A DNA stretch of 64,000 nucleotides from an uncultured Thermoleophilaceae bacterium (GTDB lineage Bacteria > Actinomycetota > Thermoleophilia > Solirubrobacterales > JACPNS01): positions 138,596 to 202,595 of the forward strand of contig CAYVWQ010000002.1 in assembly GCA_964455545.1 (NCBI GenBank). Direction: 5' to 3'. Both the position numbers and the translations under genes were made by a program. Shown here piece after piece: positions 50,283 through 64,000 of this stretch. The first letter of the stretch is position 1, and the number at the start of each line of letters is the position of its first letter. Under the pieces are notes generated by a model. That model did not search any database. It was not told the DNA's origin and was given only the letters and a program-made list of their open reading frames with translations.

Positions 50283-51818
50283 GTGGTGCGCCTCCTTTCC
50301 ATCGCCATCGCGTTAATCGTCTGCCTGTCGGCAATGGCTGCCACCGCCGTCGCCTCACCGATCAAAGTCCAGATCGCAAACAACTCAGCCAAAACCCCCC
50401 AAAACGTCTGGCTGACCCTCCACGGCGCCGCAAGCACCGACGGCCAACTCCCCGCCGACACCCCGGTCCAGCTCAGCTCAATCGCCAACAACTCCTTCAC
50501 GATCGGCGACATCAACGCCGGCCGCCTCTTCGTCTCCTACGACCAGGGCGTCGGCCCGGCCGAGCCGATCACCACGCCGATCCGCAACGACAAGATCGAG
50601 TTCACCAACCCGGGCGTCGTCAACCTCACGTCTGTCGACTACTTCGGGATTCCGATCGACGTGCAGACCCTCAACTCCGGCGGCACGGTGATCGACACGC
50701 TTGCCTATCGCTGCCACACCTCGACGATCCTGCCGAAGCTGCAGGGCATCGCGGGCGTCACGGGGGCGCAGATCAACACCACGGGCGGCAACTTCGCCCG
50801 TTTCCTCTCGCCGCAGATCGACCCGCCGGCCAGCTACCCACTGATGACCGGCTACCTCGCGTCCATGACCGGCAAGACGATCACCGTCGACAGCACCTAC
50901 TACGGCAAGCCGCTCACGACCACCAACTACACCGGCACGTTCGCGGCGGACGGTTCGATCACGCTCACCGGCACGATCACGACGCCCTCCACTTCTTCCA
51001 CCGTCACCGGTCAGCCGCTCGCCATCAGCGGCGCGCAGCTGCTCCAAGGGATCTACACCGGCAACGGCAGCTACACCGTCGGCGGCCAGCCGGCGGCCGT
51101 CTCCGACAACGACGTATACGCCGTGATCTACCGCGACGTCGCGGCCGGCTTCGCGCTCGGCTACTGGGGCGGGAAGTACGGCAACTCCACCTCGAGCTGG
51201 AAGGGCCAGCCGCCGTTCGCCGCCGCCTGGAACACCCCGCCGGCCTTCACCCCCTACTTCAACCAGTACGCGCAGATCATCGGCGAGTACTCCGACTCGT
51301 ACGGCTTCTCGTTCTCGGACGTCGGTCCCGCACCCGTGCAGGCCGGGCTCGACTCCGAGGTGGCGACGATGCTCGTGACGATCGACTCCGACTCGGGACC
51401 GCAGGTTCCGGGCTGCGTCGGTCAGGCGACCCCGCCGACCTCGGCCCCGACTCCGTCCGCACCCGTCGCCAAGAAGAAGCGTGCGAAGGCCGTCGTGCTG
51501 ACCGGTCGCCTGCGGATCGACCGCCGCGGCCGCGCCCGCCTGAAGATCCGTTGCACCGGCGACCCGTGCAAGGGCGAGGTCGTGATGACCGTTCGTCGCC
51601 GTGAGGGCCGCAAGCTCAAGACGATCGTCGTCGGCCGCGCCCGGATCGCGGTCCCTGAACGCCGCACGCGCTTCGTCTTCATGCCACTCACGCGCGCCGG
51701 CCGAACGCTGCTCGACCGCGCAAGACACGGGATGTGGACGAGATCGAGCGTGATCCTCGGCCCGCGGAGCCGGCACTACCGGTCGTCGGTGCGGTCGGTG
51801 AAGTTGTACCGGCGCTGA
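50283..51818 (+). CDS. Secreted GH64/thaumatin-like superfamily protein (beta-1,3-glucanase-like) with basic Cys-pair C-terminal module
   Basis: Signal LLSIAIALIVCLSAMAATAVA. AGRLFVSY, DKIEFTN, VDYFGIPI and YSDSYGFSFSDVGP resemble GH64 patterns. The family call is tentative. Confidence 0.5.
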   Translation: MVRLLSIAIALIVCLSAMAATAVASPIKVQIANNSAKTPQNVWLTLHGAASTDGQLPADTPVQLSSIANNSFTIGDINAGRLFVSYDQGVGPAEPITTPIRNDKIEFTNPGVVNLTSVDYFGIPIDVQTLNSGGTVIDTLAYRCHTSTILPKLQGIAGVTGAQINTTGGNFARFLSPQIDPPASYPLMTGYLASMTGKTITVDSTYYGKPLTTTNYTGTFAADGSITLTGTITTPSTSSTVTGQPLAISGAQLLQGIYTGNGSYTVGGQPAAVSDNDVYAVIYRDVAAGFALGYWGGKYGNSTSSWKGQPPFAAAWNTPPAFTPYFNQYAQIIGEYSDSYGFSFSDVGPAPVQAGLDSEVATMLVTIDSDSGPQVPGCVGQATPPTSAPTPSAPVAKKKRAKAVVLTGRLRIDRRGRARLKIRCTGDPCKGEVVMTVRRREGRKLKTIVVGRARIAVPERRTRFVFMPLTRAGRTLLDRARHGMWTRSSVILGPRSRHYRSSVRSVKLYRR

Positions 51819-51977
51819 CGGATCGCCTGCGGGGCGGAAGCGAGGCGCGCTCCCTCGCGACGCGCCCGGCGCGCGGCAAAGAGGTGCCACTTGGTACGAA
51901 GCTGACCGTGTACGTGGGCGGGTCCAAGTAGGGGCCGCACGGAAATCCACCGGCGTTTTCACGGGTACGCTGCGGGC

Positions 51978-61742: not shown

Positions 61743-61749
61743 ATCACCG

Positions 61750-64000
61750 CTACTTCTTCAGCTTGTAGGTCTTTGACGCGCCCTTGCCCGCCGAGGAGGA
61801 CGGGGTGACGGTGACGGTGACCTTCTGCTTCTTCTTCAGGCCCTTCTTGATCTTCTTCAGCAGCGAGCCCGATGCCTTGAGGTACGTGTAGGTCGCGCCG
61901 CTCGCGACCTTCACGGTCGGAACCTTGTAGGACTTCTTGCCGATCTTGACCTTCACGGCGAGCGTGCAGCCGCCGGGGCAGGAGAGGCCGATCTTCACGC
62001 GCTTCGTCGCCTTGGCGGTCTTCGGAATCGACGTGATCGCGGGTGCCGCAGGGGGCGGAGTCGATCCACCGCCGCCGGTGCCGCCACCGCCGCCACTGCC
62101 TCCCGAGCCACCGCCGCCCGGGACGTCGCAGGCGGTCGTCGCGAACAAGACTTCGTCGCTCGCCCGCTCCTGGTTCGCCGAGTCGATCGCGTGGATGACG
62201 ATCGTGTGGTCAGTGCCACAGGTCAGGCCGGTCACGGCGAAAGTGCGCGTCGTGGGGTTGGTCGAGCCGACCTTCGCGCCGTCGATGTAGACGTCGTAAC
62301 CGCTGACGCCGAAGTCGTCGGTGGCCGCCTGCCAGCCGATCGTGAAGCCGGTCTGTGAGACGCCGCTGGCGGCGACGTTGAACGGCGCCGTGGGCAACTG
62401 ATCCACGATCGTGAAGTTCACTGTCTCGGTGTCCGTGCCCCATTGCGTGTGGGTGGCGGTGATCAGGACCGAGTGCGGGCCCGCCGAGAGCCCGGTGTAG
62501 GACTTCGGCGATGTGCACGCGCCTGTCGAACCGGTGTCGAGCTTGCAGCTGATGCTCGTCGTCTGGCCGGTGACGGTGAACGCCAGCGAGACGTTGCGGC
62601 CGCTGACGGTCGCCTCCGCGCTCGTGATGCTCGGCGGCGGGCAGTCGGCCGTGGTCACGCCGTGCGCGTCACTGAACTGACTGAGGTTGCCGCGGGCGTC
62701 CTTCGCCTGGACCGTCACCTGGTACGTGGTGGCGCAGGTCAGGCCGGTCACGGCGAACGAGGTCGCGCCGGTCGTCGAGCCCTTGAGCGTTCCGTCGACG
62801 TAGACGTCGTAGCCGGTGACGCCGACGTTGTCGGTCGAGGCCGTCCAGCTCACGGTCGAGCTCGAGACGGTCGGGGTCGTGTGGCCGAGCCCGGCCGGCT
62901 TGCTGGGAGCTACGGCGTCGGGTGCCACGAAGTTCACGGTGCTCGCGGCAACCCCCTGGCTGTTGGTCGCCGTCACAGTCAATGTGTGCGCGCCGTAGCT
63001 CAGGTCGGAGAAGACCTGGCCCAGCGTGCAGTCGGCCGCGACAGCGTTGTCGAGCGAGCACTTGAGCGTCGGCATCGGGTTTCCGGTGACGGTTGCGCCC
63101 AGTACGAAGCTGTTCGTTGCAAGCGGCGTCGAGCTGTTGGCAGGCGAGGTCACCGTGACGTTCGGCGCCGTCAGGCAAGGAAGCGTCGAGACCTGAAGGT
63201 CCTGGCTCTGCGTGTAGTTGTGCGTAGGCGTTTCAACGTCCTCAGCAGTGACGCGCACCCAGTGGCTCTGACCGCACTGCCACGGTTCGGCGAGCGGGCC
63301 GGTCAGGACCATCGACGGCGTGGTCGAGTAGCCGAGGTAGTCGCCGGTGACCGGGTCGGTGACGGCGTAGCCGCCGACCTGGACGTTGTCGGTCGAGGCC
63401 GTCCAGGAGAGCGTGACGCTGGTCAGGGTGCGGGTGACGACCTGCAGGTTGGTCGGAGCCGACGGCGGGGTGGTGTCCTTGACGGAGAATGCGACCGTCG
63501 CGCTGCCGGTTCCCCATTCGCTGGTCGCCGAGACGACAAGCGTGTGAGGTCCTTGTGTGAGGCCGCTGATCAAATCCCCCGACTCGCAAGCAATTGGAGT
63601 CTGAGCGTCGACCTTGCAGGTCTTTCCGCTGACGGTTCCGGCGCCAGTAACGATGAATGCCACGCTGAAGGAACCGGTGTTGAACTTCTGGTCCGGCTCC
63701 GGGGTGGTGATCGCGACGGTCGGGACGTTGCAGTCGCCAGTCGTGAAGGTGTGGCCGGCGCTCGCCGGGCTCTCAAGACCAGCGGCGTCCTTCGCCTTGA
63801 CCGTCAGCGTGTACTGCGTTCCGCAGGTGAGGCCGGTCGCCGTGAACGACGTGGTCGCCGAGCTGCCGATCTTGGCGGCTCCGTTGTAGATGTCGTAGCC
63901 GGTCACGGCGACGTTGTCGGTACCGGCCGTCCAGTTGAGCGTGGCGCTGGTGCCGGTGATCGCAGACGAGGACAGGTTGGTCGGCGCCGTCGGCGCGACC
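61750..64000 (-). CDS. Secreted protein with alternating fibronectin type III and Cys-bracketed Ig-like domains, Gly-rich linker and basic Cys-pair C-terminal module (5' end outside window)
   Basis: FN3 signatures (WTASTDNVGVTGYDVY, LSWTASTDNVQVGGYAV) alternate with Ig-like units (PTVAITTPEPDQ..C..GPHTLVVSATS). Linker GGGGSGGSGGGGGTGGGGS. My translation of 63907-63999 continues the frame as VAPTAPTNLSSSAITGTSATLNWTAGTDNVA, so the gene is 5'-truncated by the window. Confidence 0.8.
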   Translation of the reverse strand, partial: VAPTAPTNLSSSAITGTSATLNWTAGTDNVAVTGYDIYNGAAKIGSSATTSFTATGLTCGTQYTLTVKAKDAAGLESPASAGHTFTTGDCNVPTVAITTPEPDQKFNTGSFSVAFIVTGAGTVSGKTCKVDAQTPIACESGDLISGLTQGPHTLVVSATSEWGTGSATVAFSVKDTTPPSAPTNLQVVTRTLTSVTLSWTASTDNVQVGGYAVTDPVTGDYLGYSTTPSMVLTGPLAEPWQCGQSHWVRVTAEDVETPTHNYTQSQDLQVSTLPCLTAPNVTVTSPANSSTPLATNSFVLGATVTGNPMPTLKCSLDNAVAADCTLGQVFSDLSYGAHTLTVTATNSQGVAASTVNFVAPDAVAPSKPAGLGHTTPTVSSSTVSWTASTDNVGVTGYDVYVDGTLKGSTTGATSFAVTGLTCATTYQVTVQAKDARGNLSQFSDAHGVTTADCPPPSITSAEATVSGRNVSLAFTVTGQTTSISCKLDTGSTGACTSPKSYTGLSAGPHSVLITATHTQWGTDTETVNFTIVDQLPTAPFNVAASGVSQTGFTIGWQAATDDFGVSGYDVYIDGAKVGSTNPTTRTFAVTGLTCGTDHTIVIHAIDSANQERASDEVLFATTACDVPGGGGSGGSGGGGGTGGGGSTPPPAAPAITSIPKTAKATKRVKIGLSCPGGCTLAVKVKIGKKSYKVPTVKVASGATYTYLKASGSLLKKIKKGLKKKQKVTVTVTPSSSAGKGASKTYKLKK

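Follow-up and report, generated by a model that had tools for sequence, protein, structure and literature searches.

The 64,000-nucleotide stretch of DNA analysed here (the window), from an uncultured Thermoleophilaceae bacterium, encodes three proteins with basic C-termini carrying a closely spaced pair of cysteines, which raises the question of whether these C-termini represent a single recurrent module and what role it may serve. The proteins are a GH64-like protein (P1), a small acidic protein (P2) and an FN3/Big-repeat protein (P3). An earlier note on this DNA had described a common C-terminal layout, and the ORFs and quoted peptides were found exactly at the positions it gave. The three tails comprise 85-115 residues with a net charge of +15 to +25 and consist of a strand, a single C-x3-4-C motif, and alternating strands with one short helix. 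Each protein contains one C-x(2-6)-C motif, namely, CTGDPC in P1, CPQVDC in P2 and CPGGC in P3, located 76-88 residues from the stop; expressed as C-x(3-7)-C, the spacing is x4 in P1 and P2 and x3 in P3, with exactly two cysteines per tail. The claimed absence of an LPXTG motif was borne out, as L[PA]x[TA][GASN] occurred in 0/3 proteins, and no hydrophobic anchor or membrane segment was detected in their last 130 residues (peak 19-aa hydropathy 0.33-1.14). The low-complexity linkers described earlier were likewise present, P/T/S/A-rich ahead of the P1 tail and as a Gly-rich run ahead of the P3 tail; in the translation of P2, an acidic low-complexity region precedes the tail. The three had also been termed otherwise unrelated secreted proteins. 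Signal-peptide-like N-termini agree with this for P1 and P2, whereas export of P3 is suggested solely by its FN3/Big repeats.

P1 (50283..51818, plus strand) is a 511-aa exported ORF with a signal-peptide-like N-terminus, a GH64-like passenger, a P/T/S/A linker and a basic tail. The passenger matched the Pfam family Glyco_hydro_64 (PF16483) with E 1.9e-5 and 24.5 bits, below the gathering cut-off of 27 bits, and no PDB relative was found by phmmer; hence, it is referred to as 'GH64-like' only. Three P1 orthologues showed likewise weak scores of 17-20 bits against PF16483. The linker ATPPTSAPTPSAPVAKKK (51426..51479, plus strand; aa 382-399), read off the translation, joins the passenger to the tail, and P/T/A-rich linkers are found at the equivalent place in the orthologues. 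The tail (51480..51815, plus strand; aa 400-511), with a net charge of +23 and a pI of 12.0, is a member of a basic Cys-pair family. An HMM built from three foreign tails only (P0007, P0008 and P0010) scored it at 50.6 bits, and BLASTP of the tail gave E-values of 9e-13 to 4e-9 across the same three proteins (9e-13 to P0008). Full-length orthologues of P1 numbered 15, with 40-69% identity, all in Solirubrobacterales genomes, and the tail was kept in 15/15. It changes faster than the passenger (30-56% vs 50-77% identity), and in some orthologues it is enlarged by additional Arg/Lys/His-rich insertions in the loops and by basic extensions at the C-terminus. Judged from sequence, the P1 tail is a genuine conserved domain and a certain member of a lineage-restricted family.

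The family was defined from P0001, P0005-P0008, P0010 and P0011 together with 16 genomic copies, located by a DNA-level search for C-x-GDPC-[KR]-GE over genome contigs. Every one of the 16 true copies is C-terminal; 13 lie in records of Solirubrobacteraceae, Thermoleophilaceae or Svornostia abyssi, two in 'uncultured bacterium' MAGs and one in a MAG titled Bifidobacterium breve. This is in agreement with the lineage-specific nature proposed earlier, the family being restricted to the lineage as far as sampled. An exhaustive profile search of 1.84 billion representatives recovered only nine proteins at E<=1e-3, among them two spurious repeat proteins, a homologue of P2 and the full-length protein of P3 itself. 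The passengers differ, other architectures ending in the same domain being a PKD-repeat protein (P0010) and Ig-domain fragments (P0007 and P0011), and the tail is always C-terminal, 0-15 residues short of the stop. All 25 tails contain exactly two cysteines and 0-5 aromatic residues and have a net charge of +10 to +23; the pI in the family is 10.3-12. Both cysteines are invariant across 13 aligned members, and so is the glycine of the x-Gly following the second one (C-[KRQTN]-G, 13/13), a rule that P1 fits with C-K-G. The view that this is no named domain was upheld: no Pfam-A, NCBIfam 20.0 or PDB-sequence match was obtained for the tail, with thresholds of E<=0.1 for the window proteins and, for the 13 family members, E<=1 (NCBIfam) and E<=10 (Pfam). 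The tail domain, of about 95-115 aa, is a family unannotated in Pfam-A and NCBIfam, with which Sec-exported proteins in the Solirubrobacterales (class Thermoleophilia) terminate. Conservation concerns the predicted fold pattern, both cysteines and the very high positive charge rather than residue identity; Arg and Lys are freely swapped.

P2 (59434..60021, plus strand; GC3 in its frame 0.79-0.85) is a 195-aa ORF composed of a signal peptide, an acidic low-complexity region (passenger pI 4.1) and a basic tail, with no match in Pfam or NCBIfam. Its tail (59704..60018, plus strand; aa 91-195; net charge +15, pI 11.5), a candidate divergent member of the family, contains the Cys pair C111-PQVD-C116 (59764-59781, plus strand), and in the homologue P0002, which is 69% identical, the tail is conserved and the acidic region divergent. 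P3 (61750..63999, minus strand) is represented by its C-terminal 749 codons; the frame runs past the window end, so that the N-terminus lies outside the window, and the full-length counterpart P0003 has 1136 aa and an identical C-terminus. Its Pfam matches are fn3 (E 3.8e-27, four stretches) and Big_7. The linker GGGGSGGSGGGGGTGGGGSTPPPAAPA (62038..62118, minus strand), read off the translation, stands ahead of a tail of 95 aa (61753..62037, minus strand; net charge +23, pI 10.5), a candidate divergent Lys-rich member with the Cys pair C-PGG-C (61966-61980, minus strand).

Tertiary structure prediction of the P1 tail with AF2 (alignment of 4 sequences) gave a model of six strands and one helix with pLDDT 76 and pTM 0.64. 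The P2 tail was modelled with pLDDT 69.6 from an alignment of 6 sequences that held the other tails, so its model is no independent test. The order of elements was E-E-E-E-H-E-E in both models, which derive from shallow and partly common alignments. In the P1 model, the Cys pair C424-TGDP-C429 (51552..51569, plus strand) lies at the first hairpin and flanks the loop that joins strands E2-8 and E14-26. Foldseek searches with both models returned generic Ig/FN3-like sandwiches only (best TM 0.41-0.56), and since the E-values were 0.009 or worse and the identities 9-17%, only the general sandwich class is held in common with these matches. The best of them were FN3-like/E-set domains, i.e., the FN3 domains of C5a peptidase (1xf1/3eif), the C-terminal FN3-like domain of GH3 beta-glucosidase, and Af_0446 (3but); neither the helix after strand 4 nor the hairpin Cys pair is known as a feature of those domains. 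An Ig-like beta-sandwich with a single short helix is the fold predicted for the tail; its only two cysteines, flanking the first beta-hairpin, most likely form a disulfide staple in the exported protein.

Whether all three tails belong to one family depends on P2 and P3. The earlier proposal of a module recurring in three proteins stands firmly for P1, with 50.6 bits and its orthologues, whereas P2 and P3 are borderline at 7-14 bits. Significance beyond shuffled sequence is similarly clear for P1, but among the three window tails themselves the Smith-Waterman local scores scarcely exceeded those of shuffles (z = 0.5-3.1), and BLASTP gave E 0.006 for P1-P2, E 0.001 for P2-P3 and an 8-residue HSP with E 3.2 for P1-P3. 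Against a 22-sequence HMM, P2 scored 8.6 bits and P3 6.9 bits, values reached by 1/500 and 6/500 shuffles, respectively, and a deeper profile or extended models brought no better scores. Other family HMMs gave P2 9.8-14.1 bits, with 0/300 shuffles as high, and the HMM of P0007, P0008 and P0010 gave P3 11-12.6 bits. The hhalign comparisons to the family yielded P 3e-4 and 1.4e-3 for P2 and, for P3, 5e-4 against A4 and 0.022 against A8, with probabilities of 2-40%. In addition, the x-Gly kept after the second cysteine in all 13 aligned members is found neither in P2 (C-I-V) nor in P3 (C-T-L). These values would suit a reading in which only the P1 tail belongs to the conserved family and P2 and P3 end in unrelated or convergent basic beta-rich segments that happen to carry a Cys pair, so that the window would hold no single recurrent module. 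Such a reading deserves serious attention but appears somewhat unlikely, as several observations speak against it. In a ranking of 4317 C-termini, P2 and P3 came directly behind the 18 true tails (17 foreign and P1's own), and an HMM made from orthologues alone, with neither tail included, placed them 3rd and 4th among the non-family sequences of about 1000 in all. A chain of BLASTP links connects P3 through P0008 (E 2.6e-4) to P1, the hhalign alignments of both tails are colinear with the family with their Cys pairs matched, and the P1 and P2 models agree in element order. Moreover, a Cys pair together with a net charge of at least +15 in the last 95 residues was found in P1, P2 and P3 only among the 47 likely genes of the window. 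For P2 and P3, divergent membership in the family is probable but, unlike for P1, not certain.

With regard to function, we tentatively favor the possibility that the tail is a disulfide-stapled polycationic module by which exported proteins are retained at an anionic surface, probably that of the cell envelope. After export of a passenger bearing the polycationic tail, the tail would bind electrostatically to a polyanionic polymer; the cell's own envelope, with either its wall-associated anionic glycopolymers or its membrane, would be the likeliest partner, and the passenger would be kept at the cell surface via the flexible linker. Passengers so held would be the GH64-like enzyme, the FN3/Ig adhesin-like protein and the small acidic protein. 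Basic modules that bind the Gram-positive wall non-covalently include the GW modules of Listeria InlB and Ami and the basic C-terminal region of Lactobacillus S-layer proteins, along with SLH, LysM and PASTA. The tails resemble such binders in their C-terminal position behind a linker, high pI and lack of LPXTG, and binding of anionic wall polymers may be supposed by analogy; the neighboring gene at 47205-48116 has an equivalent architecture with a PASTA domain. The tails differ from these modules in having no sequence relationship to any of them and in combining a predicted Ig-like sandwich with one putative disulfide. Counting against the envelope anchor, exported neighbors, namely, a multicopper oxidase, a PLAT/CARDB protein and a 603-aa hydrolase-like protein, are without the tail. 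The tail could instead be a passive Ig-like stalk or stabilizer without a specific partner, its basicity a by-product of, for example, charge compensation. The predicted fold is generic and the basic tails follow acidic to near-neutral passengers (pI 6.1, 4.1 and 4.6), as such a stalk would allow. However, 22 Lys in 85 residues of the P3 tail in a genome of 65% G+C and a net charge of +10 to +23 in every member of the family argue for selection on charge itself. The terminal position and the polybasic loops and extensions added in orthologues are also hard to square with a spacer, making a passive role highly improbable.

A beta-sandwich joined to a glucanase-like enzyme through a P/T linker would suit a substrate-binding module equally well, which also weighs against the envelope anchor. 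Here, the tail would be a substrate- or matrix-targeting module, functionally a CBM, acting on an anionic extracellular polymer rather than on the envelope of the cell itself. Carbohydrate-binding modules are known on GH64 and other glucanases, e.g., CBM56 and CBM13 (CAZy). The tail of P1, at about 100 aa and C-terminal to a glucanase-like domain, occupies the classic position of such modules; it co-evolves with the GH64-like passenger in the 15 orthologues, and accessory FN3-like domains of GH3 enzymes are among the Foldseek matches. On the other hand, no Pfam CBM family was matched, none of the 0-5 aromatics per tail is conserved in the alignment, the charge is extreme, and a similar tail occurs on non-enzyme hosts, i.e., the FN3/Ig repeat protein and the enzyme-free 195-aa acidic protein. 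We consider this role rather unlikely, and equally so that the passenger is concentrated on a target such as acidic polysaccharide, eDNA, or mineral or humic surfaces.

The strictly C-terminal position on diverse exported proteins, the size and fold of an Ig-like sandwich, the flexible linker ahead and the lineage-restricted spread could also point to a sorting or secretion signal read by a dedicated machine and perhaps cleaved or covalently attached, on the model of the T9SS C-terminal domain or a pre-peptidase C-terminal propeptide. The C-terminal domain of the T9SS in Bacteroidota (Por_Secre_tail, PF18962/TIGR04183) is similarly an Ig-like sandwich, about 80-100 aa long, with which many otherwise unrelated exported proteins of one lineage terminate. 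Unlike it, the tail family is polycationic and has a conserved Cys pair, and nothing points to its cleavage or to a dedicated machine for it. The tails matched no Por_Secre_tail, PPC or other sorting model, no candidate processing enzyme was found among the neighboring genes examined, and Sec-type signal peptides are already present. Furthermore, it is charge and not a motif that is kept, unlike in a protease or transpeptidase recognition site. To our knowledge, no T9SS is known in the Actinomycetota (Thermoleophilia). A sorting signal of this kind is a distant prospect, and the tentative preference for a polycationic envelope anchor is retained.

Basic C-termini in the window extend beyond these three proteins. 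The proteins encoded at 23113-27087 and 27127-29133, previously called FecR-like, do have basic tails (+20 each), but their FecR identity was not sustained, as Pfam FecR was matched neither by the full proteins at E<=0.01 nor by their last 220 aa at E<=10; no Cys pair is present in their tails.

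Three proteins encoded in the window, P1, P2, and P3, end in a basic tail carrying a cysteine pair. P1 (511 aa; 50283-51818, + strand) is an ORF with a signal-peptide-like N-terminus and a remotely GH64-like passenger. The passenger matched Pfam PF16483 with an E-value of 1.9e-5 and 24.5 bits, which is under the 27-bit cut-off; the match was equally weak for three P1 orthologues, and no PDB relative was found by phmmer. P2 (195 aa; 59434-60021, + strand) combines a signal peptide with an Asp/Pro-rich acidic region and showed no match to Pfam or NCBIfam. P3 (61750 to past the window end, − strand) comprises the C-terminal 749 codons of an FN3/Big-repeat protein, whose full-length form is the database protein P0003 (1136 aa). 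The layout described in the earlier note was found in all three proteins, including the quoted peptides, the C-x3-4-C pairs (CTGDPC, CPQVDC, and CPGGC), and the linkers, which are P/T/S/A-rich in P1, acidic and of low complexity in P2, and Gly-rich in P3. Among the 47 likely window genes, P1, P2, and P3 alone have both a C-x(2-6)-C motif at 76-88 residues from the stop and, over the last 95 residues, a net charge of at least +15. As noted earlier, the tails lack LPXTG; an LPXTG-like motif and a hydrophobic segment were absent from all three, and a sortase signal was ruled out. A wrong-frame Arg-rich artefact was ruled out by the in-frame GC3 of 0.85-0.96 and the conservation of the protein in orthologues, and a recent DNA duplication by the protein identity among the tails of only about 20-27%.

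The P2 frame has a GC3 of 0.79-0.85. An 86-codon antisense ORF (59751-60011, − strand) with equally high GC3 (0.85) overlaps the P2 tail and was favored over the P2 frame by a simple GC3 filter. The P2 homologue P0002 (69% identical) showed that the conserved frame at the tail lies on the + strand. P2 is taken as a real gene because P0002 keeps a well-conserved tail despite its divergent acidic region.

When 1.84 billion representative proteins were searched exhaustively with a profile, nine matched at E ≤ 1e-3, two of them being P0002 and P3 itself (P0003). P1-type tails were present in P0005 and P0006 and divergent tails in P0007, P0008, and P0010; P0004 and P0009 were judged to be spurious repeat or low-complexity matches. 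The P1 tail scored 50.6 bits against an HMM of P0007, P0008, and P0010 only, and BLASTP against these three gave E-values of 9e-13 to 4e-9. The domain was C-terminal in every family case: P0010 is a 559-aa PKD-repeat protein ending in the tail, while P0007 and P0011, a member recovered later, are fragments in which other Ig-like sequence is followed by the tail. Word-indexed homologue searches with one tail and two alignments yielded almost nothing (P0001, P0007, P0008, and P0011) and did not enlarge the family, and no match to a family tail was obtained by tblastn in 72,556 plasmids. That the module is not a named domain held up, as neither the window tails nor 13 family members matched Pfam-A, NCBIfam 20.0, or PDB sequences, even at permissive thresholds. 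A profile search of PDB sequences with the tail family was likewise negative, and the literature searched made no mention of a domain of this kind in Thermoleophilia or Solirubrobacter. Hence, the domain is undescribed in these libraries. The tail of P1 is the defining case of an unannotated, polycationic C-terminal domain with a Cys pair and a predicted sandwich fold, restricted to Solirubrobacterales as far as sampled. It represents a new family of a well-known kind of accessory domain with a commonplace predicted fold class.

The family alignment was too variable to be back-translated into a DNA pattern. One genome per GTDB species, a set that does not include the source genome (present in the NCBI and Logan assemblies), was searched for C-x-G-D-P-C-[KR]-G-E with a degenerate DNA pattern. 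The 112 matches were about the noise expectation, and 16 real tail copies were identified among them by a six-frame HMM scan. In agreement with the lineage restriction proposed earlier, 13 of the 16 come from Svornostia abyssi J379 (Thermoleophilia, Solirubrobacterales) or from records with Solirubrobacteraceae or Thermoleophilaceae in the title; two are in MAGs labelled just 'uncultured bacterium'. The remaining copy (L092; CAMCUD010000039.1, 3472-5739), from a MAG titled 'Bifidobacterium breve' that is probably a mislabelled or contaminated bin, is clearly orthologous to P1 (50% identity, 756-codon frame) and retains the tail. Fifteen copies are full or partial P1 orthologues with 40-69% identity over the whole length, and the nearest relatives of P1, P0001 and the locus L103, come from Thermoleophilaceae MAGs, which places the window in this lineage. 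The sixteenth copy (L099; JBPPNC010000030.1, 2-388), on a Solirubrobacteraceae contig, is a disrupted P1-like gene whose 129-codon frame joins passenger fragments and the initial third of the tail to the polybasic end, suggesting a deletion or frameshift. Across the P1 orthologues, the tail diverges faster than the passenger (30-56% vs. 50-77% identity). It was present in every orthologue recovered by a search that was conditioned on the tail motif and to which tail-less orthologues are invisible. In several orthologues, strands 2 and 3 are separated by an Arg/Lys/His-rich insertion of up to about 30 residues and the C-terminus is lengthened by a polybasic extension. Relatives of P2, or of the P2 and P0002 alignment, were absent from the genome and metagenome contigs searched, and the C-terminal 300 aa of P3 retrieved from contigs one FN3 protein without the tail.

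Direct similarity among the three tails barely exceeds chance. BLASTP gave E-values of 0.006 (P1-P2) and 0.001 (P2-P3), and for P1-P3 just an 8-residue HSP (E 3.2). With 1000 composition-preserving shuffles, z-scores were 0.5, 1.6, and 3.1 for local and 1.7, 3.0, and 3.9 for end-gap-free global alignment. An HMM of the three segments, as suggested in the earlier note, was run against the window translated in six frames and detected no additional copy. Against the HMM of P0007, P0008, and P0010, P2 scored 9.8 bits and P3 12.6 bits, neither score being reached by any of 300 shuffles; a seven-sequence HMM gave 14.1 and 11.4 bits for the P2 and P3 tails, respectively. With a 22-sequence HMM in which P1 orthologues predominate, the scores were 8.6 bits for P2 (1/500 shuffles) and 6.9 bits for P3 (6/500). 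Using hhalign, both tails aligned colinearly and with matched Cys pairs to the seven-sequence family alignment (P 3e-4 for P2, 5e-4 for P3), and P-values of 1.4e-3 and 0.022 were obtained with the 13-sequence alignment. The best BLASTP match of P3 to a family member was P0008 (E 2.6e-4); P2 had none. N-terminally extended or deeper HMMs did not improve the signal, the null set for the deeper models being contaminated by loci selected for the CxGDPC motif. Simple convergence is a main rival explanation for the P2 and P3 tails, and the Gly that follows the second Cys in 13/13 aligned family members is absent in both. The evidence for their membership is consistent but weak.

Rank tests were more persuasive. 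When 4317 C-terminal pieces of 95 residues, taken from the window and all retrieved loci and including many Arg-rich spurious frames, were scored with the HMM of P0007, P0008, and P0010, the 18 true family tails (17 foreign and P1) came first, followed by P3 (11.1 bits) and P2 (9.7 bits), and noise began at 6.9 bits. Since the members of this HMM had come from a search whose profile included P2 and P3, the test was repeated over 1008 pieces with an HMM of orthologue tails only, chosen by DNA motif; P2 and P3 then ranked third and fourth among the non-family sequences. The P1 tail is a member of a real family. A single module common to the three unrelated proteins is a plausible but statistically borderline proposal. 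All three tails probably represent one homologous domain.

AlphaFold2 modeling of the P1 tail with a four-sequence alignment (pLDDT 76, pTM 0.64) predicted strands at 2-8, 14-26, 29-42, and 47-54, a helix at 56-64, and strands at 69-77 and 86-93. The same order of elements was obtained for the P2 tail (pLDDT 69.6, pTM 0.51) from a six-sequence alignment that included other tails and is thus not independent. In the tail models, the two cysteines lie at the ends of the first two strands and flank a 3-4 residue loop, a predicted geometry that would suit a hairpin-stapling disulfide. As a further conserved strand-like segment ('AKAVVLTGRLRIDRRG' in P1) lies about 20 residues upstream, outside the model, the full domain would span about 115 aa. 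Foldseek searches of the PDB with both models returned only generic Ig/FN3/C2-type sandwiches (TM 0.41-0.58; best E-values 0.03 and 0.0086), those common to both being C5a-peptidase FN3 domains and the C-terminal FN3-like domain of GH3 enzymes. A passive Ig-like spacer is one of the main rival functions; were the tail only a generic accessory sandwich, the result would be a Pfam-style domain definition and nothing more.

The conserved features of the tail are its strand pattern, exactly two cysteines, a terminal position past a flexible linker, and a large positive charge. Net charge was +10 to +23 and pI 10.3-12 in all 25 tails, and Arg and Lys are freely exchanged (23 Arg in P1; 22 Lys in P3, despite a genomic G+C content of 65%); the tails contain few aromatic residues, and these are not conserved. 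Because the charge is conserved, aromatics are few, and orthologues add polybasic loops or tails, the polycationic tail would bind a polyanion electrostatically. By analogy with the basic wall-binding modules of other Gram-positive bacteria, it would hold exported passengers non-covalently on the anionic envelope of the cell itself; this reading is preferred, albeit tentatively. Among the main rivals are a CBM-like module aimed at extracellular polymers of anionic character and a genuine tag for sorting or secretion; no candidate processing enzyme was seen among the neighboring genes examined. The broader idea that the tail is the address tag of a Thermoleophilia-specific surface-display system is unlikely. 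Here, a dedicated partner (an envelope polymer, S-layer, or processing enzyme) would recognize the tag, the whole surface proteome would be marked, and P1-, P2-, and P3-type tails would be diverged sub-classes, as a Gram-positive counterpart of the T9SS C-terminal domain or SLH-SCWP anchoring. A putative role in retention or secretion, as suggested in the earlier note, is a reasonable interpretation.

A neighboring 303-aa exported protein (47205-48116, + strand) has the same overall architecture as the tail proteins, but with a PASTA domain (Pfam E 2.1e-9) after its Gly-rich linker (PPAGSGGGGNSS), and a basic stretch, KRAPRRQRK, past this domain about 26 residues before the stop. PASTA is a known peptidoglycan-binding module; this organism therefore uses terminal wall-binding domains. 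Soil and fresh water harbor abundant Thermoleophilia (Solirubrobacterales), whose cell biology has hardly been studied, and the literature searched yielded no surface-anchoring mechanism peculiar to them. Non-covalent retention by the tail, if true, would make the surface proteome predictable from sequence and account for exported enzymes and adhesin-like proteins staying cell-associated without LPXTG, and the tail could find use as a compact display tag.

Two exported proteins encoded between the tail-bearing genes (53166-58987) lack the tail: a 603-aa hydrolase-like protein, for which Pfam gave very weak alpha/beta-hydrolase matches only (E about 0.02), and one of 783 aa that combines PLAT and CARDB domains with a weak Het-C-like match. 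A YjdM zinc-ribbon protein and a PIF1-family helicase are also encoded in this stretch, and the multicopper oxidase at 60073-61680 also lacks the tail. Two large exported Ig-repeat proteins (23113-27087 and 27127-29133, both + strand; Glucodextran_B, Big_7/9/13, NHL) had been labelled FecR-like, a label that was not sustained as no Pfam FecR domain was found. They share a different C-terminal region of about 150 aa with a +20 net charge in the last 95 aa, a Lys-rich end, and no Cys pair; this region may represent another type of basic terminal module in the same genome. Directly upstream of P1, an IrrE/ImmA-like M78 peptidase, an ECF-type sigma factor, and a 207-aa protein (48145-50226, + strand) could form a regulatory cassette for the downstream cluster of exported-protein genes. 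A low-G+C patch (40580-44855; 0.59-0.61 vs. about 0.65) is probably a horizontally acquired restriction-modification/defence islet; its products are an HNH endonuclease, a NERD nuclease, and a NaeI-family restriction endonuclease (E 2e-104) accompanied by a C-5 cytosine methyltransferase.
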